Positions 3,497 to 16,439 of a DNA stretch of 64,000 nt are shown piece after piece. A program made the translations under genes and the position numbers. The stretch comes from Candidatus Hydrogenedentota bacterium (GTDB lineage Bacteria; Hydrogenedentota; Hydrogenedentia; Hydrogenedentales; SLHB01). The DNA lies in contig JARKSN010000313.1 of assembly GCA_029974275.1 (NCBI GenBank), positions 22,525-86,524 of the forward strand, given 5' to 3'. How positions within the stretch are numbered: the first letter of the stretch is position 1; each line of letters starts with the position of its first letter. Under the pieces are notes generated by a model. That model was not told where the DNA came from, made no database searches, and worked only from the letters and a program-made list of their open reading frames with translations.

Positions 3497-3587
3497 ATCG
3501 GGAGCCGGGACTTTTCTTTTGGACACTCATGCTCTATAATGTCGCCAATAGCCAGCGGTTCCGATGCCGCGAATGGAGGAACTAGAA

Positions 3588-4154
3588 ATGAACCGAAAGG
3601 TGCGCTTGGGTGTCGCCGTATGTGTGTCCATGTTGCTTGCCGCGTTCTTGGTCGTCGCCACGCACGCCGACGACGGCGCCACGTACGTCGGCGCCGCCAA
3701 GTGCAAGATGTGCCACAACAAAGCCGATGAGGGGCAAGTGTGGACGAAGTGGCAGGAATCGAAACATGCCAAAGCCTTCGCGACGTTGAAAACGGATGAA
3801 GCCAAAGCGGTCGCCGAAAAAGCGGGCGTTGCCACGGCTCCGTCCGAAGCGCCCGAATGCCTGCGCTGCCACGTGACCGCATATGAGAAAGACAAGCCAC
3901 TCCCGGCGGACATCAAGATGGAGGACGGCGTCCAGTGCGAAAGCTGCCACGGCCCTGAGTCCGCGCACTTTGCCGCAGCCAAAAAGGCGCTTGCAGACAA
4001 GTCCATTCCCCAAGTCCTTTCGGGCGCGCCCAAGGAAGAAACGTGCAAGAAATGCCACAATCCGGAGAGTCCGACGTATAAGGAATTCAACTTCAAGTCG
4101 TTCTCCGAAAAGATTGCCCATCCCAACCCGTTGCGAAAGGCCCCCAAATCCTGA
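3588..4154 (+). CDS. Periplasmic tetraheme cytochrome c (c554/c-552/4 family)
   Basis: RBS GGAGGA; signal peptide; YVGAAKCKMCH, CLRCH, VQCESCHGP, CKKCH. Confidence 0.88.
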   Translation: MNRKVRLGVAVCVSMLLAAFLVVATHADDGATYVGAAKCKMCHNKADEGQVWTKWQESKHAKAFATLKTDEAKAVAEKAGVATAPSEAPECLRCHVTAYEKDKPLPADIKMEDGVQCESCHGPESAHFAAAKKALADKSIPQVLSGAPKEETCKKCHNPESPTYKEFNFKSFSEKIAHPNPLRKAPKS

Positions 4155-4325
4155 TCGCGCCGTGACCCGAGCGAAGCTGTCCGTTTGCGTGCGATGCGCG
4201 GTTTCCGGAGAGGCCTTCCTTCGCACAGCAAGCCGAGGCCATGATTTCGCCCGCGCACGCCGCAGCTGTGAGTGAATAACGATTGGGCTGGGTTCCGATC
4301 CGGACGACTGGACCATGGAGACGCC

Positions 4326-4973
4326 ATGAAAACACGCATCCTGCTGTCCGCACTCGTAGTCTGTTCCCTCGGGTGCGATGCCGACAACGTCAAATCCATT
4401 ACGCAAGCGCGGATGGTTCCCGCGCCCGCACTGGCGACGGCGGACGGGACGGCGACGCAAGGATTTCATGCGGCGCACCCCCCTATCGAGGCATCGGGCA
4501 TGGCGGGATCGCCGCATGCGCGGACGGTTCCCTTCCGTTGGACCAAGCCCGCTTCCTGGGCCGACATTCCGCCCACGTCCATGCGGCTCGCCAATTTTTC
4601 CATTCCTGACCGGCCCCGCGTCGAATGCTATATTTCGACGTTGTCGGGCGCGGCGGGGGGCGTCGCCGCAAACGTCAACCGTTGGCGCAACCAGATGGGG
4701 CAACCCGATCTCGCCTCCGACGAGATCGCCGCGTTGCCGACGATCGAGGTGATGGGCAAACCGGCTTCGATGGTCGAGACGACGGGCTCCTACACCGGCA
4801 TGAAAGGGGCCACCGAACCCAACTACACGTTGCGCGGCCTTGTCTTGGAATTGCCCGGCCAGGTTCTTTTCGTCAAGATGATTGGTCCAACGGAAGAAGT
4901 GGCTGCCTTGAAGGAGGATTTCGTGGCATTATGCGCCTCGATCGCCTCCGTTCCGCCGGAAGACGCCCCGTGA
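4326..4973 (+). CDS. Hypothetical lipoprotein in the cytochrome c biogenesis cluster
   Basis: RBS GGAG; lipobox-like SLGC; stop overlaps the GTG of the next gene; motifs MRLANF, GGVAANVNRWRNQMG, FVKMIGP. Confidence 0.7.
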   Translation: MKTRILLSALVVCSLGCDADNVKSITQARMVPAPALATADGTATQGFHAAHPPIEASGMAGSPHARTVPFRWTKPASWADIPPTSMRLANFSIPDRPRVECYISTLSGAAGGVAANVNRWRNQMGQPDLASDEIAALPTIEVMGKPASMVETTGSYTGMKGATEPNYTLRGLVLELPGQVLFVKMIGPTEEVAALKEDFVALCASIASVPPEDAP

Positions 4974-6139
4974 AGATCATCCTTCAACGCGGGTTTCTCG
5001 CCCTTTCCTCGTACGGATTCTCCTGCATATTGTTTTTGTTCCTGTTTGTGCTGACCTATCTGGGAACCATCGAACAGGTTACGCACGGCCTGTACGAAAC
5101 CAGCCGGAAGTATTTCGAGTCCGTTTTTCTGACGCATTACCTGTGGGGAGTCGTTCCCGTGCCGCTCCCCGGGGCCTACCTCCTGCTCGTCCTGCTTGCC
5201 CTCAATCTCGTAGCCTGCGCCTTCGTGCGCAACCGGCTGAGTTGGGCGCGCACCGGCGTGTTGCTGGCCCATGCAGGCATCTTGCTCTTGCTGCTTGGCG
5301 CCTTCCTCTCTTTTCAACGCTCGCAACAGGGCCAACTGACACTGTACGAAAATGAGCACGCCCATGAATTCCAAAGCTATCAGCAATGGGAGATCGGGCT
5401 CTGTCCTCTTGCGAAACCCGGAACGACGGTGGAAGAGCGCATCATTTCGCCCCGAGATCTCGCCCAGGGGAAGCGGAACGCCCCTGTCTCTTTCGAATTT
5501 CCTGGGCTTCCCATCCGCCTTACGGTGTCGGATTTCGCTAGGAATGCCCGTCCTCAATCCGCAAGCGGATCTTCCGTCGCCGGCAAGGCGATCGACGGCG
5601 TCGTATTGACGGCGCTTCCCCCCGCTCGGGATGGCGAGACGAATATTCCAGGAGCCTACGTAACCGTGGAGGACCTGTCCAGCGGCGAGCAGCGCGAAGG
5701 CATTTTGTGGGGCGCCGCGCGATCCCCGCTTGCGTTGGAATTGGGCGGCGTCTCCTGGGCGATCGAACTGCGGCGCCAGCGTTGGACCTTGCCTTTCCAG
5801 GTGACGCTTGATTCATTCGTCCGGGAGGTCTATCCGCGCACCTCCATCCCGAAGGTGTTTGAGAGCACAGTGACCGTCCGCGACGGCGATCTCGAGCAGC
5901 GTTTCAAGATCGCCATGAATGAGCCGTTGCGCTACAAGGGCTATACGTTTTTTCAATCCTCCTGGGGGCCGCCGAACGCCGGGCCCAACGATCGGCTCTA
6001 CTCCACGCTCGCCGTGGTGAAAAATCCGGCGGAAAAATTCCCCTTGTACGCTTCCGCCGTCATATCCCTGGGCATGTCCATTCACTTCGGGCTGGCGCTC
6101 ATCCCGCGCCTCAAGAACCGGAGACGGAGGACGGCATGA
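4970..6139 (+). CDS. resB: Cytochrome c biogenesis protein, ResB/CcsB-like
   Basis: GTG start overlapping upstream TGA; N-terminal TM helices, GVLLAHAGILLLL, C-terminal MNEPLRYKGYTFFQSSW; directly upstream of ccsA. Confidence 0.8.
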   Translation: MKIILQRGFLALSSYGFSCILFLFLFVLTYLGTIEQVTHGLYETSRKYFESVFLTHYLWGVVPVPLPGAYLLLVLLALNLVACAFVRNRLSWARTGVLLAHAGILLLLLGAFLSFQRSQQGQLTLYENEHAHEFQSYQQWEIGLCPLAKPGTTVEERIISPRDLAQGKRNAPVSFEFPGLPIRLTVSDFARNARPQSASGSSVAGKAIDGVVLTALPPARDGETNIPGAYVTVEDLSSGEQREGILWGAARSPLALELGGVSWAIELRRQRWTLPFQVTLDSFVREVYPRTSIPKVFESTVTVRDGDLEQRFKIAMNEPLRYKGYTFFQSSWGPPNAGPNDRLYSTLAVVKNPAEKFPLYASAVISLGMSIHFGLALIPRLKNRRRRTA

Positions 6140-8124
6140 GACCTTTGTTTTTCATACGCGTCGCGGCGATTTCCGGGGGGTTGTTTCTGGCATCCGCCGG
6201 TCTGGCCGGCACCCAGCCCGTGCAGGATCCTTCCGCGCCCCCGTCTTGGGATGCGCCAACCGAGCGGCTGTTTTCTTCCCTGCCCATCCAGGACGAGGGA
6301 CGCATCAAGCCCATGGGGACATTCGCGGCGTACACGTTGATGAAGTTCAGCGGCAAGCAAACCTGCAAGGACCCGTCCGGGAATACGCTTTCCGCGACCG
6401 CTTGGCTTATGCACTGCCTGTTTCATCCGCGCTATGCGCAGACCTGCAACGTGTTCCGGGTGGACGATTCCGGCGTTATGGTGGCGCTCGGATTGCCGTT
6501 TACGCGCAAGCGCGACCTCTACGCGCACCAGGATCTCGCGCCCGCCGCCGCAAAACTCTCCGCGCTGGCCGAACAATACGCGCATGTGCCCGCCAAACAG
6601 CGGACGCCTCTCCAAACTCAACTCCTCAACCTGGCCAGCAACGTTCACGATTTCGAATCGCTGCTGGGGGCGATGGACTTTACGGAAGTTTCGTTTACGT
6701 TTCCATCTTCCGATCCGCTGGGCGCCCTCTTTCCCCAAGATCGCCCGTATCGCATCAGCGACGCGCTCGCCAAGTCCGGCGCGATTCGAGCCGCCGTCAT
6801 CGCGATGCGATCCCAGGCGGGCGCCGAGAAAGACCAGGATCCCCAGGGGTGGGCCTCGGTGGGCGTTTTGTTGGGAGAAATGGAAAAGATCGCGGCCCAC
6901 GGCCATGTTCTTGCCCTTTTTCCGCCCCCGCCGGATTCGGGAGAAAAAGAATGGATGGCTCCTGCCGACGTCGTCGAATGGGCCTTCGATCGCGACGAGG
7001 AAGAGCCGTCCGCCGCTCCCATCGCTTTGTTGCGTTCGCTCGAGGATCTCGCCCTCGCCCGGCATGACGCCGCTGCATTCGCCGCCAACCTACGTCTCTT
7101 TCATGACGCCGTCACCCAGATCGCCATGGCCCGGGGCGAATACGAAAAAGTTCCTCTCGAAAACGCCTACCACCGCGCCAAGCTTTTTCAACGCAGCTTG
7201 ATGTTGTATATCCTGGCCTTTCTGATCCTCGCGGCATCCTGGGCATTGCCCAAGCGAATGACCGAGAACACGTTTACGGACGCATTGTTGATGTTCGCCG
7301 TGTTTGCGCCCACGGCATGTCTCGGCGCGGGCATTGTTTTACGTTGCATCATTCGCGAGCGCCCCCCGGTGACGACGCTCTACGAAACCATTCTCTTCGT
7401 AACGTTCACGGCGGCGCTTATCGCCCTTCTCATTGAATTTCTTTCCAAACAACGTTTGGCGCTGTCGCTGGGGGCGATTCTTGGCGTGTTGGGAATGTTT
7501 TTGGCCAACAAATACGAAATCGAGGAGGGCGTGGACACGATGCCCAGCATGGTGGCCGTGCTGGATTCGAATTTCTGGTTGTCCACGCACGTGACCACCA
7601 TTGCCATCGGGTATGCGGCCGGCCTGCTTGCGGGGGCCATCGCCCATGTATACCTTTTGGGAAAGCTCATGGGATTTCGGAAAGATGACCCCGTTTTTTA
7701 TGGGGACATTACGCGCATGGTGTATGGGACCTTGTGTTTCAGCTTGTTGTTTTCCGTGATTGGCACCGTGCTGGGCGGCGTCTGGGCCAACGAAAGCTGG
7801 GGCCGCTTCTGGGGATGGGACCCCAAGGAAAACGGGGCCCTTCTTATCGTTCTCTGGCAATTGGCCCTTCTCCATGCGCGATTGGGAGGTTATCTTCGCG
7901 ATCACGGCGTCAACATGGGGGCGGTTTTTGGCGGCATTGTCGTCGCTTTCTCTTGGTTTGGGGTGAATTTGCTGGGCGTCGGCTTGCATAGCTATGGGTT
8001 TGCCACAGGAACCCATCGCGCCTTGCTGCTTTTCTACGCCGTCGAGGGCGTGGCGCTTTTGTTGGGCTGGGTGGCATGGCTGCGCTCGGACAGCGGATCC
8101 GCCGGGCAAAGCGCGAAGACATAG
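6136..8124 (+). CDS. ccsA: Cytochrome c biogenesis heme lyase CcsA/ResC
   Basis: WWD domain GGVWANESWGRFWGWDPKE; heme-ligand His motifs WLSTHV and GLHSYG. Confidence 0.92.
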   Translation: MRPLFFIRVAAISGGLFLASAGLAGTQPVQDPSAPPSWDAPTERLFSSLPIQDEGRIKPMGTFAAYTLMKFSGKQTCKDPSGNTLSATAWLMHCLFHPRYAQTCNVFRVDDSGVMVALGLPFTRKRDLYAHQDLAPAAAKLSALAEQYAHVPAKQRTPLQTQLLNLASNVHDFESLLGAMDFTEVSFTFPSSDPLGALFPQDRPYRISDALAKSGAIRAAVIAMRSQAGAEKDQDPQGWASVGVLLGEMEKIAAHGHVLALFPPPPDSGEKEWMAPADVVEWAFDRDEEEPSAAPIALLRSLEDLALARHDAAAFAANLRLFHDAVTQIAMARGEYEKVPLENAYHRAKLFQRSLMLYILAFLILAASWALPKRMTENTFTDALLMFAVFAPTACLGAGIVLRCIIRERPPVTTLYETILFVTFTAALIALLIEFLSKQRLALSLGAILGVLGMFLANKYEIEEGVDTMPSMVAVLDSNFWLSTHVTTIAIGYAAGLLAGAIAHVYLLGKLMGFRKDDPVFYGDITRMVYGTLCFSLLFSVIGTVLGGVWANESWGRFWGWDPKENGALLIVLWQLALLHARLGGYLRDHGVNMGAVFGGIVVAFSWFGVNLLGVGLHSYGFATGTHRALLLFYAVEGVALLLGWVAWLRSDSGSAGQSAKT

Positions 8125-8211
8125 GCGCAGAGGTGCAAGGGGTTCCGAAGGGGGACGAGGTTCGCAAAGGCGGGATTGCAGATAAAAAATCTCGTTTCTC
8201 TCTTTTTTCCC

Positions 8212-8240
8212 TTTACAAGTTTCATGAAATGCACTACAAT
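8212..8240 (+). promoter_or_regulatory. sigma70-type promoter of the multiheme/porin operon
   Basis: TTTACA-17nt-TACAAT; spacer contains the palindrome TTTCATGAAA. Confidence 0.55.
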
Positions 8241-8549
8241 GCGTCTATTCCTGATGGTCTTCGAGGTTGCGGATGCTGAAACGGCGTTTTCGGAACGTGC
8301 CTTGCGGACGGAAGAGTTCGCGTGAAAACGCCTGCGTGCGCTCCCGAGCGATGGTCCGGGGCGGGGATGAATGCGCCGCAGGTTCGAGTGAAGCGCGCCA
8401 GCCTTTTGTGCAGTGCTAGCAGTACCCGTAATCGTGAGAGAGGCCTATGCGTGCATGGTCTCGGAACGATGCGTGCGGTTCCATGAGCGATGGGTATCGA
8501 GATGGCCGGGGTGTGTAGCGTGTATGGGAATGCGTGAAAGGGACTGATC

Positions 8550-11114
8550 ATGAAACGTCGGATCGCAGCGCCTATAATCTCTCTTCTGGCAACGGGGATG
8601 CTTGCGCTTGGAGTGGGGGGATGCGGCCTGGTCGTGGTGTCGCCTTCCGTGGCGTCGTTGAAGGTTGGTCAGACCGTGGGGCTGACCGCGAGCGGCACGT
8701 CGGACACGAGTTTCACGTGGCGCACCTCGAATCCGGCCGTGGCTTCGGTAAGTGAGGGCGGGGTGGTGACGGCGCTGGCGATTGGGTCGGCCCGCATCAC
8801 GGCGACCGGCAACGCTTCCGGTCAAGTGGGGAGCGCCGTCATCAACGTCGTGCCGTTTGTGGCGCGCGTCACGGTCGTTCCGGACGCGGCTTCCCTGGAG
8901 GCAGGCAAGACCTTGGCGCTGGCGGTTTCCTCGAATGATCCCCTTGACGCGAATTTTGAATGGGTTTCCAGCGATACGGCCGTTGCGACGGTCGACGCTT
9001 CCGGCGTGGTGACGGGGGCGGCTTCAGGAATGGCCGTCATTTCGGCCACGGGCGTTCATAGCGGTGCGGGCGCCAAGGGGACATGCTCGATCACGGTCAC
9101 CCCGCGCGTCATTCTTCCCCCTGTTGCGAACGCGGGCGTCAGCGGAACGGCTTCCTACAACACCACGGTCGCGTTGGACGGGTCGTTGAGCAGCGATCCG
9201 CAGAGTTTGACGTTGACCTATGCGTGGACGCAGACTTCGGGGCCTGCGGCGACGCTTACGGGGGCGACGACGAACAAGCCTTCCTTCAAGCCTGCGCAAC
9301 CGGGGTCGTACGTGTTTGAGCTGGTTGTGAACAACGGGACCTTGTCCAGCGCTCCCGCGACGGTCACGATCACGGCGGTGAACAATCCCCCTGCGGCGGC
9401 CATAGCGATTGACGCCATTTCGGATATCGAGCGGCAGTACCTGGGGTTGGAAAGCACCTTGTCGAGCGGCTTGTCCAATGTCGGCGTCGGCACGGACGTG
9501 TATTTGCTGGGATCGGCCACGGACATCAACGGCGATGCCATCGTCGGGTTTCAGTGGTCGATCGTGTCGCGCCCTGCCGGCTCCCTGGCGGCGTTGACCA
9601 CCCCCACGGAGGCGGACACGGCGTTTCGCCCGGATGTCGCTGGCACGTATCGGATTTCGCTGATCGCTTCCGACGGTCTGAAAGCGGCGGGGGCCGCCGC
9701 CACGCAGGATATTCACGCGGGCTTCTGGGTCGGCGAAGGCACCGACGTTGGCCAGAGCGCCTGTGCGCCGTGTCACAACGGCACGGTCGCGCCGGACAAG
9801 ACCACGGAGTGGCTGGGCACCAAACACGCCATCACGTTTGCCAATCGGATTGATGGGCTGTACGGTCCGACGTATCCCGAGTATTGCCGCCGCTGTCATA
9901 CGGTTGGGTATGACAAAACCGGCACGGCGGCAAACAATGGATTCGACGACGTGGCGGCGTCGGTAGGCTGGACGCTTCCCGGCACGCTACAGCCGGGCAA
10001 TTGGGCGGCCCTGATCGCCGACACGCCGCAGTTGGCGCGTCTGGCGAATGTCCAATGCGAGAATTGTCATGGCCCGGCGAGCCAGCATGTGGCCGGGGCG
10101 GCGTTCACGCGCGACAAGAAGATGTCGGTTTCCTTCGGCAGCGGCAACTGCGGCATGTGTCATGGACAGGAAGAGGAATGGAAGCTGACCGGTCATGCGG
10201 ACGAAAACGCGGAGCCGTGGACGATGCCGGTGGGGCCGTCTCGGACGGCGTGTGTGCGATGCCATTCGGGGGTGGGTTTTATCGACACGATTGGCGGGGT
10301 CACGCCGGCGCGCACGACCAAGCAGAATCCCACGTGCGCGGTGTGTCATGATCCCCACAGCGACGCCCACGAAGCCCAGTTGCGTTTGGGGGATGAGGTC
10401 ACCTTGCCGGGCAACGTGCGCGTGACGGGGGTCGGGCCGAACGCGGTATGCATGTATTGCCACAACGCGCGGCGGGCTCCGGCGGACGCCCTCGCTGGGT
10501 CCTATCCGCATTACAGCACCGCGTCGGAGATGGTCCTGGGGGTCAATGGGATCACCTATTCCAACGGTCCCATTCCCAATTCGCCGCATACCTTGATGAA
10601 GACGGGATGCGTGGACTGTCATATGGCGCCGACGCCGGGCGTGGAACGCGACAATGTGCATCAGCCGGGCGAGGGCGTGGTGGGGGCGCATACCTTGGCA
10701 ATCACCGCTCGAACCTCCGATCCGGCAAGCCCGGATTATGGGTTTGAGAACGTGCAGCACGCATGCAACACGGCGGGGTGCCATGACAAGAGCCCCATCG
10801 TCGCGGTGAATCGCACGGCGTATGGAGATTATGATGGCGATGGCGCGATCGAGGGCGTCCAGGATGAGGTGCGGGATTTGATGGCGCTGGTGAAGACCGC
10901 GATCGTGAACAGCGGGGTGACGGCGCTTGCCAACAACCCCTACTGGGCCAACGTCACCACCAATGCCCAGCGCAGGGCCATTTACAACTATTCCCTGGCA
11001 AAGGGCGATGGCAGTTACGGCATTCACAATACGGGTTTCGTGGTTGGATTGCTCCAGTTGTCCTACAAAGATTTGAAGGGGCATGACGTTCCGGGGGCGA
11101 CGCTCCGGTATTGA
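8550..11114 (+). CDS. Surface multiheme c-type cytochrome lipoprotein with Ig-like (Big_2) and PKD-like domains
   Basis: Lipobox VGGC; two Big_2-like repeats (WRTSNPAVASV, WVSSDTAVATV); PKD-like PPVANAG...YAWTQTSGP; 8 CxxCH plus CNTAGCH; C-terminal DGSYGIHN. Confidence 0.88.
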   Translation: MKRRIAAPIISLLATGMLALGVGGCGLVVVSPSVASLKVGQTVGLTASGTSDTSFTWRTSNPAVASVSEGGVVTALAIGSARITATGNASGQVGSAVINVVPFVARVTVVPDAASLEAGKTLALAVSSNDPLDANFEWVSSDTAVATVDASGVVTGAASGMAVISATGVHSGAGAKGTCSITVTPRVILPPVANAGVSGTASYNTTVALDGSLSSDPQSLTLTYAWTQTSGPAATLTGATTNKPSFKPAQPGSYVFELVVNNGTLSSAPATVTITAVNNPPAAAIAIDAISDIERQYLGLESTLSSGLSNVGVGTDVYLLGSATDINGDAIVGFQWSIVSRPAGSLAALTTPTEADTAFRPDVAGTYRISLIASDGLKAAGAAATQDIHAGFWVGEGTDVGQSACAPCHNGTVAPDKTTEWLGTKHAITFANRIDGLYGPTYPEYCRRCHTVGYDKTGTAANNGFDDVAASVGWTLPGTLQPGNWAALIADTPQLARLANVQCENCHGPASQHVAGAAFTRDKKMSVSFGSGNCGMCHGQEEEWKLTGHADENAEPWTMPVGPSRTACVRCHSGVGFIDTIGGVTPARTTKQNPTCAVCHDPHSDAHEAQLRLGDEVTLPGNVRVTGVGPNAVCMYCHNARRAPADALAGSYPHYSTASEMVLGVNGITYSNGPIPNSPHTLMKTGCVDCHMAPTPGVERDNVHQPGEGVVGAHTLAITARTSDPASPDYGFENVQHACNTAGCHDKSPIVAVNRTAYGDYDGDGAIEGVQDEVRDLMALVKTAIVNSGVTALANNPYWANVTTNAQRRAIYNYSLAKGDGSYGIHNTGFVVGLLQLSYKDLKGHDVPGATLRY

Positions 11115-11178
11115 GCGCAGGTTTTCCAGGGGCGCGAAGGGGCGGCGTGCGTGCGGGACATAACGTGAGAATGGCGGC

Positions 11179-11976
11179 ATGAACGTGATGTGGAAATCGC
11201 TGGCGGTTCCGGCAGGACTGTTGGGTTTTGTCGTGGCGAGTTCTCTGGGCGCGCAACAGTGCGGCGGGCCGGCCACGGTGGGAACGGGGGTTTGCATCGC
11301 GTGTCATGACGGGCGTTCCGCCACGGACCAACTCGATTTTCTGGTCAGCCAGCATGCCGGCATCGAGTGCGAAGCCTGCCACGGACCGGGCTACGTGCAT
11401 GTACGCAATGGCGGACGCGGCGGACGGTTCATCAAAAACCCCGCCAAGGAGTCATTCGCGAACGCGTATCGGCTTTGCACCGCTTGCCATGCGGAGCAGG
11501 TGGCTGGTTTTCTGGCGAGCGGTCACGGCCAGAAACAGGCGGCGACGTGCCATGACTGTCACGACGTGCATGCGCCCGGCGGCGCCCGACGCAATCCGAA
11601 CAACAACGAGATGTGTCTGACATGCCATGCGCCGTTCGGATTTTCGGACAGCGCGGCCATCGAGGCGCATACGATGTATCATCCGAATGATCCGGGGGGG
11701 ACGGGCGCGAGTCGTTGCATCTCCTGTCACATGCCGCCGTTGGACGCGATCCTTCAGGCAGACGGCCCGCATGATCACACGCTGGCGACGATCCCGCCGA
11801 TTCGTTCCAACGAGGCCGCGCAGGCGGGCGCGGTTCCGACGCCGCCCAATTCGTGTTCGGGCATCGCGGGCTGTCACGATGGTTCCGTGCCCGGCGCGCC
11901 GATTTTTGACGTCGACAATTTCACCTTTAACGGCATACTCCAATCGCTCTATGAGCAGGTGGGTCAGATGCCGTAA
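11179..11976 (+). CDS. Multiheme c-type cytochrome (6 CxxCH plus one CX5CH), exported
   Basis: Signal peptide; CIACH, CEACH, CTACH, CHDCH, CLTCH, CISCH, CSGIAGCH. Confidence 0.88.
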   Translation: MNVMWKSLAVPAGLLGFVVASSLGAQQCGGPATVGTGVCIACHDGRSATDQLDFLVSQHAGIECEACHGPGYVHVRNGGRGGRFIKNPAKESFANAYRLCTACHAEQVAGFLASGHGQKQAATCHDCHDVHAPGGARRNPNNNEMCLTCHAPFGFSDSAAIEAHTMYHPNDPGGTGASRCISCHMPPLDAILQADGPHDHTLATIPPIRSNEAAQAGAVPTPPNSCSGIAGCHDGSVPGAPIFDVDNFTFNGILQSLYEQVGQMP

Positions 11977-12003
11977 CGCGGCGGTCCGGGAACGGTCGGG
12001 GTC

Positions 12004-13632
12004 GTGATCCGGCGGCGCATGGCGGAGGCGGGGAGACGCACGGTGGGAGTTGAGCACGCATTTCGATGGCGGTGGGCGTTGGCAGGCGTTGTCCTATGGG
12101 GTTTCGTGATCGGCGCTTCCGCACGCGCCGCGGATCAAGGAGACGACGCTTCTTCGGAAGCCGGGCAGGAAACCCTTCAGGCGCCGCGCGCGGCTGCTCC
12201 TGAATCGACCGCGGGGGATGAAAAGCCCGAGAAGACGCCGAAGAAGTGGTTGCGGGGCAGCTTTGAAACCGGTCTGGACGCCGCATGGTCGGACCGGGAT
12301 TCGGACATCAATCTGGATCAAACCTTGCGCGTGAAGATTGACCCGCCGAATCATGAGCGGATTCATATTCGCGCATCGTTGTGGCTGCGGGAAGACCTTG
12401 ACGGCGACGAGTCGCGGACGAGCGGCTTGCGCGATGTCGACGACGCCTACGGGTCGAGCGTTCGGTTTCGTCCGCTATACATGTATGTGGACGTGGACGA
12501 TCTCTGGGGCGATTCCACGTTGCGCCTCGGCCGGCAACGCATCCAGGAAGGAACGGCCTGGAACCGGATCGACGGCCTTTACTTCAAACAGCGCGCGGCG
12601 TGGGGGGACTGGTATGTTTTCGCAGGCGCGCGGGCTTCCTTGTACACAGACGCGCACAGGGATTTCGCGGGCGGCGGCGGCGTCTCGTTCCGCCCGGCCC
12701 CGGCGACGCGGATAGCGCTGGACGGGTATTACGGCACGGAGCGCGATCGCGATCGCGATGAGACGTTTTTCTGGCCGTTGGCGTGGGGCGCCTGGTTCAA
12801 CCTCGCCTCGCCGAGGGCGGTCCCGGACGATCGGGAAGACCATCAGATATCGCTGAGCGCGTGGCAAGCGGTCGGCGCGCATCTCATGCTGTATGGCCGT
12901 CTCACGGAGCAAAGCGGCGCGTTTCACAGCGCGCTCCTCAGCGCGACGGGAACCATCCCCGCGTGGAACCTCACCTACGAGGCGGCCTACCGCGCCCAGA
13001 CCGACGCCATTGGGGATCGACTGCGCGATCTGGGCGGTTTTTACCAGACCGTGGGGCGCCGCGACAAGCGCCAGGACTTTCGGATCGCCTTGCATCGCCC
13101 GCTGACGGAAAAATGGACGCTTTCGCTGGAAAGCGAATTTCGCCGAAGCGACGCCCATGCTTCCGGTTTCGGCAATCGCGATTATGATCGTTACGCGGCG
13201 ATCCTGTCGGCGGAAAAGCTGCGGGGCGGCATCGACGCCACCGTCGGTCTCGCGTGGTGGCGCACCGATCGCGATCAGGGGTCGACGGCCGTCACGGCGG
13301 AGGTTGCCAAGAAATGGAGCCGCCTTTCGCTGGCGTTGGGGGCTGATTTCGAGCGATACGAGGACCGGATTGTTTATCATCCCCTGTCGTTTTGGGCGGA
13401 CCAATTCACGCCGGGGACGATCTTCGGCGCGTATCCATTCGTCAATCGTTTGCTGTATCTCGCGGATGGCGTGGCGATCGACACGCGCGAAAACGTGCGG
13501 TCGATCTACGGAAAGGCCAAATGGACCGTCCGGCCTGACCATGACGTGAACGCGCGCGTCTCGTACGAGACGGACAGCGAGCCGGATTCGCCGTACTGGC
13601 GGGTGCAGATGGGATATGTCGTTCGTTTCTAA
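12004..13632 (+). CDS. Putative outer-membrane beta-barrel (porin of a porin-cytochrome complex); start codon uncertain
   Basis: Signal peptide; amphipathic aromatic-rich beta strands; LRLGRQ motif; C-terminal YVVRF with terminal Phe; flanked by multiheme genes. Confidence 0.75.
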   Translation: MIRRRMAEAGRRTVGVEHAFRWRWALAGVVLWGFVIGASARAADQGDDASSEAGQETLQAPRAAAPESTAGDEKPEKTPKKWLRGSFETGLDAAWSDRDSDINLDQTLRVKIDPPNHERIHIRASLWLREDLDGDESRTSGLRDVDDAYGSSVRFRPLYMYVDVDDLWGDSTLRLGRQRIQEGTAWNRIDGLYFKQRAAWGDWYVFAGARASLYTDAHRDFAGGGGVSFRPAPATRIALDGYYGTERDRDRDETFFWPLAWGAWFNLASPRAVPDDREDHQISLSAWQAVGAHLMLYGRLTEQSGAFHSALLSATGTIPAWNLTYEAAYRAQTDAIGDRLRDLGGFYQTVGRRDKRQDFRIALHRPLTEKWTLSLESEFRRSDAHASGFGNRDYDRYAAILSAEKLRGGIDATVGLAWWRTDRDQGSTAVTAEVAKKWSRLSLALGADFERYEDRIVYHPLSFWADQFTPGTIFGAYPFVNRLLYLADGVAIDTRENVRSIYGKAKWTVRPDHDVNARVSYETDSEPDSPYWRVQMGYVVRF

Positions 13633-13651
13633 CGCGAAGGAGTGTGCTGCG

Positions 13652-14674
13652 ATGCCGCGCCGCAACGGAAAGCTATGGTTGATGACGGGCCTGCTCGTTG
13701 CGCTTGCGGGCGCGTGCATGACGTATTCGGTGACTTCCTTGGCGCGCAAGGACCGCGGTATCCGCGCCCACCATGCCCAGCACGCCAAGGAAGGGCTGGC
13801 CTGCGCCGACTGCCACGCTTTCGACAAGGGGGAGGCTGTTTTTCCCGGTCATGACACCTGCAGCGCCTGCCACGAGGTCGACGCCGAGCTCACGCCCGGC
13901 AAGGCGTGCGAGAAATGCCATACGAAGGAGGGCTACGCGATCGAGCGCTATGTCAAGCGCGTGCGGGATGAAGTGAAATTCGCGCATCCGGTTCATCTTG
14001 CCAAAGGCATCGAATGCGCCGTCTGCCATGCCGATCCCGACAAGTCCCTGCTGTCGACCGGATCGCTGAAACCGTTCTGCATGGACTGCCATGGCAAGAC
14101 CGATCCCGCGCTGAATGCTTGCGAGACCTGTCACGCCGTCATCAACAAGACCGTCCGCCCGACGGAACGCGGCGGAGTCCGCTTGGCGCACGATGCCCCC
14201 GCCATTTGGGAACGCGTGCATGGCCGCGAGTCGCGGGTCGATCCGAAATACTGCGCGTTGTGCCACGACCAGGAGGATGATTGCGAGGATTGTCACCGCA
14301 AGACGCCTCCCCGGGATCATACCGTGGCGTGGCGTCGCGACGGGCACGGCCTGCGCGCCCAATGGGATATCGAGAAATGCTCCACCTGTCATGAAGAAGA
14401 CATGTGCATCAAGTGTCACCGGAACGCCGCGCCGCGATCGCACGCCGCCGGGTGGGGAAGCCCCGCCAATCTTCATTGCGCGACATGCCATTATCCGCCT
14501 GCGGGGGAAGGATGCGTGACGTGTCATGAGACCGTCTCGCATGCGACGGCCATGCCGTCGCCGCATGATATGGGCATTTTCCCGCCAAAATGCGGCCGCT
14601 GTCATCCCGGAGGATTGCCCAATCGCGCGCCCCACATCATGAACGGCAGCGCGCGCTGCGCCGTTTGCCACTGA
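13652..14674 (+). CDS. 14-heme cytochrome c3-like lipoprotein
   Basis: RBS AAGGAG; lipobox LAGAC; 14 CxxCH motifs counted; FAHPVH c3-type His motif. Confidence 0.9.
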   Translation: MPRRNGKLWLMTGLLVALAGACMTYSVTSLARKDRGIRAHHAQHAKEGLACADCHAFDKGEAVFPGHDTCSACHEVDAELTPGKACEKCHTKEGYAIERYVKRVRDEVKFAHPVHLAKGIECAVCHADPDKSLLSTGSLKPFCMDCHGKTDPALNACETCHAVINKTVRPTERGGVRLAHDAPAIWERVHGRESRVDPKYCALCHDQEDDCEDCHRKTPPRDHTVAWRRDGHGLRAQWDIEKCSTCHEEDMCIKCHRNAAPRSHAAGWGSPANLHCATCHYPPAGEGCVTCHETVSHATAMPSPHDMGIFPPKCGRCHPGGLPNRAPHIMNGSARCAVCH

Positions 14675-14984
14675 GAGCGCCGCCTGCCGTTCCCGTGGCG
14701 TGACGGTTCCGCGCGAAAGATATCCGGGCGCAGCGTTCAAGCGCTCGGCCCAGCTGCAGGTTCTGTTGCGCATGTTCCCAAGGACGCCAACGGCCTCGGT
14801 CGCGGGAAGAGCCGTGGCGGCGGCGCTCCTTCCTCTGGAACCCGCAGGCGTGGAATCGTACAATGCCCCGCGAGAGAGACCCGTGGGGGAAAACGCTGAA
14901 CCATGTTTGCCAGGAGCGCCGCCGAGCACATGATAGCCGGCCTTTGTGGTCATGCCGTTGGATTGCGCGCCGGGGCGCCGCCGC

Positions 14985-16439
14985 ATGACTGATATCGGAC
15001 GGCATGGGCGCAACATCGCGTGGCTTGCGTTGGCCGATCTTTTTGGCAAGGCGTGCGGCGTATTCTATTTCGCCTACCTTTCGCGAAGTCTGTCCGTGAT
15101 CGAGAATGGATGGTACGGGACATTCATCGCCGCCATTCCGATACTCAGCACGCTGAATACGCTCGGGTTTCAGGACATCGTGACGCGGGAGACGTCCCGG
15201 GACCGCGGTCGCGTTCACGCGCTCATGGGGTCGGGCATGGCGACGCAGCTGGGTCTTTTCGTGGTTCTGCTCCCGGCGGTCTGGGGCGTGTCCGTGTGGC
15301 TGGGCTACGATCCGTCTCTTCGTTTCGTCATCGCGTTGGCGGCGCTGGCGGCCCTTGAACGGGCGCTGATCTCGATGCATGCCGCCGTAATCGCCGCGCA
15401 CGAACGCTTCAAATACGCCAGCATCGTCGCGATTTTCACGCGGTCGGCAACGGTGGCGGGCGGCATAGGCTTGCTGTACTTGGGCTATGGGCTCAAGGGC
15501 ATTCTCTGTTTCACCCTCGGCGTTTTTGTCATGGAACTGCTGCTTACGTACGTTGCGGTTCGCCGGAAATGCGTGAACTATCGCCTCGTGTATCGTCTTT
15601 CCGACGTGCGCTTTCTCCTGCGCGAGGGATCGGGGATGGCGTCGGGGCGCCTTGTGTCGGTACTATATTACAGTATGGACATGTTTGTCCTCAACGCCTT
15701 GGTTTCCGGCGAGGAAGTGGGTTATTTTGCGGTGGGGACCCGGTTTCTGGCGCTGCTTTGGACGTTTCCCGATCTCTTGGAGAGCGTTTCCTATCCCATT
15801 TTGAGCCGCAAGGCGCTCGAGGGGGAGGCGTCGCAGCATTTCGCTTTTTTGCGGTTGGTCAAGGGGATGACGCTGATTGGGTTTCCGATGGCATGCGGCA
15901 TGTCGGCGCTTTCCGAGGGGGTGGTGGCCACGTTGTGCGGCGCCAAGTTCATTCCCGGAGCGGCGGCGGCGGCGGTCTTGACGTGGGTGCTTGCGTTGGA
16001 AATGCTGATGCGGATTCCCACGGTGTATTTGCGCGCCCGTTCGTGTTTTGCGGCCGTCACGCGCTGCTACGCCTTGGGCGTCGCGATAAAGCTTCCGTTG
16101 GCATGGCTGCTCGTTCCTCGGCTGGGCGTCAACAGCTTTCTGGCAATCAGCGTCCTGGCCTCCTGCATCATGTCTGTGGTCATTTTTCGAAGCGTGCGCT
16201 CCGTGTTGCCGGCTCTTTTTTGGCGCGAGGTTTTCGTGACGGCGGGCAAGCCTTTGATCGCTGCGATCGCGATGGCGGCCATGCTGTGGCCGATGAGGGA
16301 CCTGTCGGTTTTCCTCACCGTGCCGGCGGGAGCGATCGGGTATGGCGTTGTTTTTGCCGCATTGGGCGGGATCGATCCGTTCGATCTTTCCTTTCTGCGC
16401 CAGCTGCTTGTCCGAAAAGGCGGCCGGGAAGCGGCGTAA
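14985..16439 (+). CDS. Wzx-type polysaccharide flippase (MOP superfamily)
   Basis: Many TM helices; RNIAWL...YLSRSL...GWYG, REGSGMA, EEVGYFAVG. Confidence 0.8.
   Translation: MTDIGRHGRNIAWLALADLFGKACGVFYFAYLSRSLSVIENGWYGTFIAAIPILSTLNTLGFQDIVTRETSRDRGRVHALMGSGMATQLGLFVVLLPAVWGVSVWLGYDPSLRFVIALAALAALERALISMHAAVIAAHERFKYASIVAIFTRSATVAGGIGLLYLGYGLKGILCFTLGVFVMELLLTYVAVRRKCVNYRLVYRLSDVRFLLREGSGMASGRLVSVLYYSMDMFVLNALVSGEEVGYFAVGTRFLALLWTFPDLLESVSYPILSRKALEGEASQHFAFLRLVKGMTLIGFPMACGMSALSEGVVATLCGAKFIPGAAAAAVLTWVLALEMLMRIPTVYLRARSCFAAVTRCYALGVAIKLPLAWLLVPRLGVNSFLAISVLASCIMSVVIFRSVRSVLPALFWREVFVTAGKPLIAAIAMAAMLWPMRDLSVFLTVPAGAIGYGVVFAALGGIDPFDLSFLRQLLVRKGGREAA

Follow-up and report, generated by a model that had tools for sequence, protein, structure and literature searches.

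A porin-cytochrome-type gene cluster built around an unnamed barrel family in Hydrogenedentota

Introduction

Electron conduits across the outer membrane combine a barrel protein with multiheme c-type cytochromes. Among the closest described systems are the porin-cytochrome (Pcc) clusters typified by OmbB-OmaB-OmcB of Geobacter sulfurreducens, for which Shi et al. (2014, PMC4245776) describe porins of 18-22 strands and signal-peptide periplasmic cytochromes of 5-14 hemes. Lipoprotein multiheme cytochromes adjoin the porin in such clusters, and inner-membrane and periplasmic cytochromes are linked to them. The same source describes two-gene clusters of Kuenenia and Anaeromyxobacter consisting of a porin and a 12-14-heme protein of 338-344 amino acids (aa), classed there as periplasmic. 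MtrCAB of Shewanella (PDB 6R2Q) likewise unites a barrel with a heme wire and with a lipoprotein reductase at the surface, and a nonaheme cell-surface terminal reductase, OcwA, has been described from Thermincola potens (PMC6703420). Here, we report a locus of comparable architecture in a 64,000-nucleotide stretch (hereafter, the window) of contig JARKSN010000313.1 from a Candidatus Hydrogenedentota bacterium (assembly GCA_029974275.1; positions 22,525 to 86,524, forward strand). Its four adjacent genes, A to D, probably encode a Pcc-type conduit for outward electron transfer.

Divergent porin-cytochrome clusters are now often reported from uncultured phyla. A recent preprint (bioRxiv 10.64898/2026.05.27.727921) describes the EET1-4 clusters of peat Acidobacteriota and Verrucomicrobiota, in which a porin is syntenic with periplasmic and surface multiheme cytochromes. 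Their MtrA-like, MtrC-like and OcwA-like cytochromes show low identity to Mtr/Omc parts. The locus studied here can be likened to them by description only, and the available part of the preprint treats other phyla, not Hydrogenedentota.

Hydrogenedentota are widespread and uncultured, and they are portrayed mainly as fermenters or oxygen respirers. The terms ‘extracellular’ and ‘porin’ are both absent from a catalogue of 179 Hydrogenedentota genomes (PMC11406978), and a literature search combining Hydrogenedentes/Hydrogenedentota with multiheme, porin-cytochrome or extracellular electron transfer returned survey-level mentions only. One such survey, made with FeGenie, reports porin-cytochrome homologues in 15 Hydrogenedentota metagenome-assembled genomes (MAGs) (PMC10809760). 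A first-pass annotation of the window, made from its letters, had suggested that the conduit might be undescribed in this lineage. That suggestion holds insofar as we found no study characterising it, but those 15 MAGs had already been counted.

Results

Four adjacent genes with 30 candidate heme sites

The cluster consists of four open reading frames (ORFs) on the plus strand of the window:

8550-11114, + strand: gene A, ORF of 854 aa
11179-11976, + strand: gene B, ORF of 265 aa
12004-13632, + strand: gene C, ORF of 542 aa with a GTG start
13616-14674, + strand: gene D, ORF of 352 aa

The genes are tightly spaced, with gaps of 64 nucleotides (nt) between A and B and 27 nt between B and C, and an overlap of 17 nt between C and D. 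A carries eight CxxCH motifs and one Cx4CH (CNTAGCH, residue 739), B six CxxCH and one Cx5CH (CSGIAGCH, followed by D), and D 14 CxxCH. Counting the two unusual sites, this sums to 30 candidate heme sites, and the heme motifs are largely invariant among homologues. C contains no cysteine and ends in ...GYVVRF. An ORF check thus agreed with the first-pass annotation on the coordinates and strand of all four genes and on its counts (8 + Cx4CH, 6 + 1 and 14; about 30 hemes in total), the ‘+1’ of B being the Cx5CH.

Across the 4.38-Mb genome, just ten stop-to-stop frames of at least 80 aa contain three or more CxxCH motifs. Four of these ten lie inside the window, so the clustering of heme motifs there is not due to chance. 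No catalytic subunit (such as a molybdopterin or FeS protein) was found within the cluster.

Protein C is a 22-strand barrel without a family model

Protein C begins with a signal peptide, followed by a disordered Ala/Pro/Glu-rich linker that reaches to about residue 75. An AlphaFold2 model based on a 41-homologue alignment (mean predicted local distance difference test score (pLDDT) 79.6; predicted template modelling score 0.73) contains 22 strands in residues 83-541. All top fold matches (Foldseek, VIA-align) were outer-membrane barrels: SusC-like (Z 19.1), Cir (18.7), FimD (18.6) and BtuB (18.5). The 12004-13632 product therefore folds as a barrel, and with its terminal YVVRF it fits the ‘beta-barrel ending in Phe’ of the annotation.

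By sequence, C matched no Pfam family (expect value (E) <=0.01), no NCBIfam model and no PDB sequence (E <=10). PF11854 (MtrB_PioB) matched neither C nor anything else in the genome, which is 100% complete. Nor is C a Cyc2-type fused porin-cytochrome: it is free of cysteine, so no heme motif is fused to the barrel. The MtrB structure has 26 strands. MtrCAB differs from the locus in that C has 22 strands and lacks PF11854, whereas Shi et al. (2014, PMC4245776) give 28 predicted trans-membrane motifs for MtrB.

Proteins B and D are candidates for the heme wire

Protein B has a signal peptide and resembles the N-terminal part of MtrA/DmsE. In the PDB it matched 6r2q_A (‘Structure of the Mtr complex’) at E 1.6e-10, a chain of 333 aa that we take to be MtrA. 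The length given for MtrA is likewise 333 aa (Shi et al. 2014, PMC4245776). Against TIGR03508, the decaheme MtrA/DmsE family, B scored 54.8 bits (cut-off 192.2) over model positions 1-152 of 258, and against NF041028 it scored 59.7 bits, also under the cut-off. Six CxxCH motifs, Cys28 and PNSCxGxxGCHD, which contains the Cx5CH, are invariant in all 32 aligned B sequences.

The locus departs from MtrCAB further in that B has 6 + 1 hemes rather than ten, that a 14-heme lipoprotein is present in addition, and that A finds its closest PDB counterpart in OcwA and not in MtrC. Because PF11854 is absent and the decaheme cut-offs are not reached, the locus is not an Mtr (MtrCAB/MtoAB/PioAB) system.

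Protein D carries the lipobox LVALAGAC (the lipoboxes of A and D were judged by eye), the pattern L/V-G/A-A-C is kept in its homologues, and most of its heme sites are invariant across 49 sequences. Among PDB sequences, D matched only ActA pentaheme subunits of alternative complex III, a generic c7-like similarity. A structure model (mean pLDDT 66.7) returned nothing from the PDB at E <=0.001 with Foldseek; the best row, again ActA of alternative complex III (E 0.07), has no bearing on function. In size and heme number, C and D resemble the porin and 12-14-heme protein of the Kuenenia and Anaeromyxobacter clusters, the difference being that D is a lipoprotein whereas Shi et al. (2014, PMC4245776) class those proteins as periplasmic.

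Either cytochrome might fill the barrel. B is the one with MtrA similarity, which speaks for it, and the 17-nt overlap of the start of D with the end of C, compatible with translational coupling, speaks for D. We lean slightly towards the C-terminal seven-heme half of D, because in other lineages that half alone, with an ordinary Sec signal peptide, is encoded directly 3′ of the barrel gene. A complex prediction of C (residues 76-542) with B (residues 28-265) scored 0.00 against a mark of 0.32; its controls were not run, and it is not evidence either way.

Protein A is a stalked, OcwA-like cytochrome

Protein A starts with the lipobox LALGVGGC. Two Big_2 stretches (Pfam E 2.8e-18) and a K319L-like PKD domain (E 5.6e-18) occupy approximately residues 29-380, in agreement with the immunoglobulin (Ig)-stalked lipoprotein cytochrome of the annotation. 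The heme domain (approximately residues 400-854) belongs to the OcwA/NrfA family, has nine heme motifs and matched PDB 6i5b_A, which is OcwA, at E 6.7e-13 and, by phmmer, at 2e-14. In a homologue from locus L115, the Cx4CH site lies near a canonical CxxCH position. We propose that A is a cell-surface terminal reductase.

A and OcwA share the number of heme motifs, and they align over OcwA residues 158-197, 253-395 and 455-495, which include the C-terminal helical region. They differ in that the ninth site of A is Cx4CH, and OcwA is matched over part of its chain only, with a similarity that is modest (E 2e-14). OcwA, moreover, is of Gram-positive origin and has no lipobox-Big_2/PKD stalk, whereas A sits in a Gram-negative porin-cytochrome cluster.

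With a 22-strand barrel (C), a secreted 6 + 1-heme cytochrome (B) and lipoprotein multiheme cytochromes (D and A), the locus has the architecture that defines a pcc cluster, to which we assign it on that ground and not by homology to Geobacter proteins. Within this class it is set apart by its cytochrome-barrel-cytochrome order and its OcwA-like terminal protein on an Ig stalk.

The B-C-D triad is conserved, the terminal protein is not

C has 66 close homologues, all at E 1.4e-81 or better; the few that are named come from Candidatus Hydrogenedentes/Hydrogenedentota, with one from Nitrospiraceae. Synteny was examined in 39 related loci from species-representative genomes, labelled Hydrogenedentes/Hydrogenedentota/Hydrogenedentales (23), Nitrospiraceae/Nitrospirales (10), ‘uncultured bacterium’ (4), FCB group (1) and Bathyarchaeia (1). 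As their gene content is the same, the Nitrospiraceae, Nitrospirales, FCB group and Bathyarchaeia labels are probably mislabels or binning errors.

D lies 3′ of C in 37 of the 39 loci, and the remaining two contigs end there. B lies 5′ of C in 35; three loci are cut by a contig end and one has a 21-heme ORF instead. The B-C-D order is thus kept in all 39 loci wherever the contig permits. The D homologue has 14 hemes in 35 of 37 loci, the other two being truncated, and among the 35 loci with B the number of CxxCH motifs is six in 25 and eight in nine, with one partial sequence. Across the phylum, C matched in 41 of 86 high-quality genomes and in 36 of 66 genera. Two MAGs each hold two copies of the triad (L026 and L031; L028 and L032), one with a six-heme and the other with an eight-heme B, and two triad copies or two barrel matches occur in several genomes, including G036, G040 and G067.

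A itself is not conserved in the 39 loci. Only its lipobox-Big_2 start recurs, and there it stands on decaheme proteins, encoded near the triad in 12 of the 39 loci, plus one split copy and one contig-edge fragment. One of these sister decahemes, scanned against the PDB, matched MtrF (3PMQ) at 6e-26 and OmcA at 8e-18. Two scanned against Pfam matched PF22113 (5e-47 and 1.9e-58), and the other ten are homologous to these two by BLAST. No MtrC-like heme domain was found in the genome of the window. We regard A as the lineage-specific, swappable terminal component, apparently of OcwA type here in place of the MtrC type in sister genomes. The annotation had described a four-gene operon; the four genes are indeed adjacent and co-directional, but since only B, C and D are conserved together, that description overstates the unit.

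At L040:1852-4025 (- strand), the MtrC/MtrF-type decaheme gene next to the triad is split into a seven-heme and a three-heme ORF, which reflects a frameshift, an assembly error or a pseudogene.

Barrel and 14-heme protein recur in other lineages

A profile of C searched against 1.84 billion representatives gave 526 matches at E <=1e-3, of which 351 reach E <=1e-10 and 55 reach E <=1e-30; the 526 are representative clusters at 50% identity. The distant members are unnamed hypothetical proteins of approximately 450-520 aa with an invariant G-R-Q ... D-G motif that they have in common with C. Where labelled, they come from Brocadiales, other Planctomycetota, Nitrospirota, SAR324, Deltaproteobacteria and Omnitrophota, and a look-up in a protein Atlas, which gave unnamed clusters only for the barrel family, added Acidobacteriota.

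We further inspected 80 metagenome loci retrieved with a subgroup profile. ORFs with at least three CxxCH motifs adjoin the barrel gene in 78; the two loci without them are contigs of 1,007 and 3,458 bases. Two layouts recur. In one, a divergent nine-heme Sec-type protein comes first, then the barrel, then a second Sec-type protein (6-7 hemes, about 200 aa) and lastly a lipoprotein cytochrome (500-800 aa). In the other, the barrel is accompanied by a 12-15-heme protein of approximately 320-440 aa, for which four sampled ORFs (318-342 aa) showed a lipobox, and by a larger lipoprotein cytochrome (800-1000 aa).

D matched 64 ORFs in these loci, where a D homologue usually comes after the barrel. 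The matches span the whole of D (31-35% identity, E 1e-29 to 1e-46) or, for seven-heme proteins, its C-terminal half (residues 198-352). B had no match in them at E <1e-6, and the heme domain of A matched the third gene of two Omnitrophota-like loci (1e-31 and 2e-18). The barrel and a D-type cytochrome therefore form a conserved pair, B is phylum-specific and the terminal protein is exchangeable. Profile searches with distant barrels and with D gave named matches in MAGs of Planctomycetota, Nitrospirota, SAR324, Deltaproteobacteria, Labilithrix and Gemmatimonadales. Among the matches listed there was no cultured, studied organism and none of the names Geobacter, kuste4024/4025 or IALB_1838/1839, but most matches are nameless and the searches rely on shared words, so that absence is not shown.

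Three long database proteins (P0164, P0178 and P0179) unite the barrel family with ResB, with a 4Fe-4S dicluster domain or with a multiheme cytochrome. Whether these are merged gene calls or true fusions, the same linkage exists in other lineages.

Candidate feed-in and maturation genes

Upstream of the cluster, the window holds a cytochrome, two maturation genes and a promoter-like site:

3588-4154, + strand: c554-like tetraheme periplasmic cytochrome, 188 aa, four CxxCH (Pfam Cytochrome_C554, E 1.3e-19)
4625-6139, + strand: ResB/CcsB-like subunit of a system II cytochrome c synthase (Pfam ResB, E 1.2e-16)
6136-8124, + strand: CcsA-like heme-handling subunit of a system II cytochrome c synthase (Pfam Cytochrom_C_asm, E 1e-22)
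8212-8240, + strand: promoter-like site TTTACA-17-TACAAT in the 425-nt gap 5′ of A (10 of 12 matches; a consensus match only)

The tetraheme protein is a candidate periplasmic electron carrier feeding the conduit, and its homologues abut the triad in 17 of the 39 related loci, mostly directly 3′ of D. In 12 of 39, homologues of ResB and/or CcsA are encoded close to the triad. Against NCBIfam TIGR03144 (ccsB), the CcsA-like ORF scored 128 bits, under the cut-off of 187.6. The true start of ResB is probably about 100 codons later, near 4934, because its homologues are 386-418 aa long and the first ~100 codons (4625-4933) are Arg/Gly-rich. A terminator scan 3′ of D found no convincing terminator.

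Elsewhere in the genome, three membrane cytochromes may supply electrons:

Contig C81:3650-6421, + strand: 19-CxxCH cytochrome c fused to a cytochrome b561-type membrane domain, candidate quinol oxidase
Contig C61:8756-10726, - strand: 11-CxxCH cytochrome c fused to a cytochrome b561-type membrane domain, candidate quinol oxidase
Contig C240:8108-9562, - strand: NapC/NirT-like membrane pentaheme of 484 aa

The two b561 fusions presumably resemble the CbcL quinol oxidase of Geobacter, and their homologues stand directly beside the B-C-D triad in two of the 39 loci (L003 and L004). Homologues of the pentaheme (45-58% identity) are encoded next to the triad in 14 of 39. NrfA and NrfH are both encoded in the genome. 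On contig C104 (25377-27416, - strand), a 679-aa protein with seven CxxCH motifs has a lipobox-like signal (VMVAC) at its N-terminus, a linker rich in Ala/Pro/Glu and a hydrophobic helix at its C-terminus, and shows a weak PF22113 match.

In three coded sludge libraries, contigs of 151-310 nt matched the tetraheme gene, A, B and D (positions 3500-15000 of the window), 12 of 13 without mismatch; stretches that no contig covers carry no meaning. The matches are contigs rather than reads and cover shares of 0.07-0.09; two libraries are metatranscriptomes, in which DNA carry-over is possible, and the third is probably DNA. The matches suggest sludge as a habitat of the source organism or of a near-identical strain; transcription is not demonstrated thereby.

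Discussion

We read the locus as a Pcc-type porin-cytochrome conduit that moves electrons outwards through the outer membrane, with a probability of roughly 0.7. The reading rests on a tightly spaced, single-strand set of a barrel, a signal-peptide cytochrome and lipoprotein cytochromes. It draws further on the barrel fold of C, the synteny of B, C and D in the 39 loci and the barrel-cytochrome pairing in 78 of the 80 wider loci. The likeness of B to MtrA and of A to OcwA, together with MtrC/MtrF-type decahemes near the triad in sister loci, points the same way, as does a genome that holds inner-membrane and periplasmic feed-in parts and a cluster that has no catalytic subunit. The first-pass annotation had also read the locus as a porin-cytochrome conduit, which fits all of this. 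It had also raised the prospect of a characterised periplasmic enzyme complex unrelated to trans-outer-membrane transfer, for which we found no match to the cluster. Its argument for novelty, namely heme counts unlike those of MtrA and MtrC, is weak, as differences of this kind are the norm among Pcc clusters (Shi et al. 2014, PMC4245776).

How the proteins would assemble and be oriented, which way electrons would flow and what would accept them, we picture as follows. Quinol would be oxidised at the inner membrane by the CbcL-like multiheme/cytochrome-b fusions or the NapC/NirT-type pentaheme. Electrons would then cross the periplasm, probably via the tetraheme cytochrome (3588-4154) and B, pass through the 22-strand barrel on a heme chain contributed by D and/or B, and exit via A, an OcwA-like nonaheme reductase presumably held off the surface by its Ig-like domains. 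ResB/CcsA, encoded just upstream, would attach the hemes. Outside the cell, the electrons could be taken up by Fe(III)/Mn(IV) minerals or humic matter, or else by an electrode or a partner cell.

Several observations weigh against this reading. MtrB (6r2q_B) ranks only 20th among the fold matches of C (Z 16.2), no closer than TonB-dependent receptors or ushers, so the fold of C indicates a large outer-membrane barrel and not specifically a cytochrome sheath. B scores far under the curated decaheme-family cut-offs, and SLGAQQC makes a poor lipobox, even though Cys28 is invariant and completes one in most homologues. In the model of D, the C-terminal half (residues 235-352) has a pLDDT under 50, which leaves the geometry of the heme chain unreadable. 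The NrfA/OcwA family, to which A belongs, includes enzymes for soluble substrates. The distribution of C in the phylum is patchy (61 of 135 genomes), and the genome total of ten frames with at least three CxxCH is low; model metal reducers have many more. We found no experiments on any member of the barrel family or the D family.

That the same complex runs inwards, like MtoAB/PioAB, we consider unlikely, even though multiheme chains are reversible and sequence does not fix their direction. Such a complex would draw electrons from Fe(II), from a cathode-like mineral or from a syntrophic partner and feed them into the quinone pool or into NrfA and similar periplasmic reductases. Against inward flow, the linked inner-membrane parts are multiheme/cytochrome-b fusions, whose likeness to the CbcL quinol oxidase we presume. 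The cluster also carries a surface-type lipoprotein reductase, OcwA-like here and MtrC/MtrF-like in 12 of 39 sister loci, whereas oxidising Mtr-type clusters, according to Shi et al. (2014, PMC4245776), usually have no surface cytochrome. In support of inward flow, the genome encodes NrfA and NrfH, and Cyc2-type iron oxidase homologues have been reported in Hydrogenedentota MAGs (PMC9769843).

It is more improbable still that A, as an enzyme of the NrfA/OcwA family, acts on some soluble substrate (for instance nitrite, hydroxylamine, sulfite, tetrathionate or selenite), with B and D as periplasmic donors and C as an ordinary substrate channel. A does match the fold region of this family including its C-terminal helical part, OcwA reduces nitrite and hydroxylamine (PMC6703420), and the fold of C is as near to transport barrels as to MtrB. 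Such an enzyme would nevertheless have to be squared with its lipobox and with three or four Ig-like domains such as surface proteins typically have, and with sister genomes in which A is not kept with the triad and MtrC/MtrF-family decahemes, surface metal reductases, stand in its place. The barrel-D pair is also linked to multiheme lipoproteins in other lineages, and the genome already holds a separate NrfAH pair. We give hardly any credence to the idea that the four genes lie side by side but share no function: A is indeed not a conserved neighbour, but the B-C-D order holds in every locus where the contig permits it, barrel and D are paired in other lineages, and C and D overlap by 17 nt.

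Beyond the outward conduit itself, we tentatively suggest, at somewhat short of even odds, that C and D (or its seven-heme C-terminal half) form the ancient core of an unnamed porin-cytochrome superfamily spanning Hydrogenedentota, Omnitrophota, Planctomycetota including Brocadiales, Nitrospirota and SAR324. This superfamily would have no detectable sequence relation to MtrB and would use a D-type rather than an MtrA-type wire, with terminal reductases of the MtrC/MtrF or OcwA type swapped as cassettes on a shared lipobox-Big_2 stalk.

If the conduit reading is true, about half of the genomes of the phylum would encode a way to respire anaerobically in sludge, sediments and groundwater, with iron minerals, humic matter or partner cells receiving the electrons. 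Several other uncultured lineages share the large unnamed family that the barrel and its 14-heme partner define. Since neither Pfam nor NCBIfam has a model for the barrel, gene-based surveys of extracellular electron transfer would benefit from a profile built from C. The apparent exchange of MtrC-type and OcwA-type domains on one stalk offers a testable case of modular evolution in such conduits.

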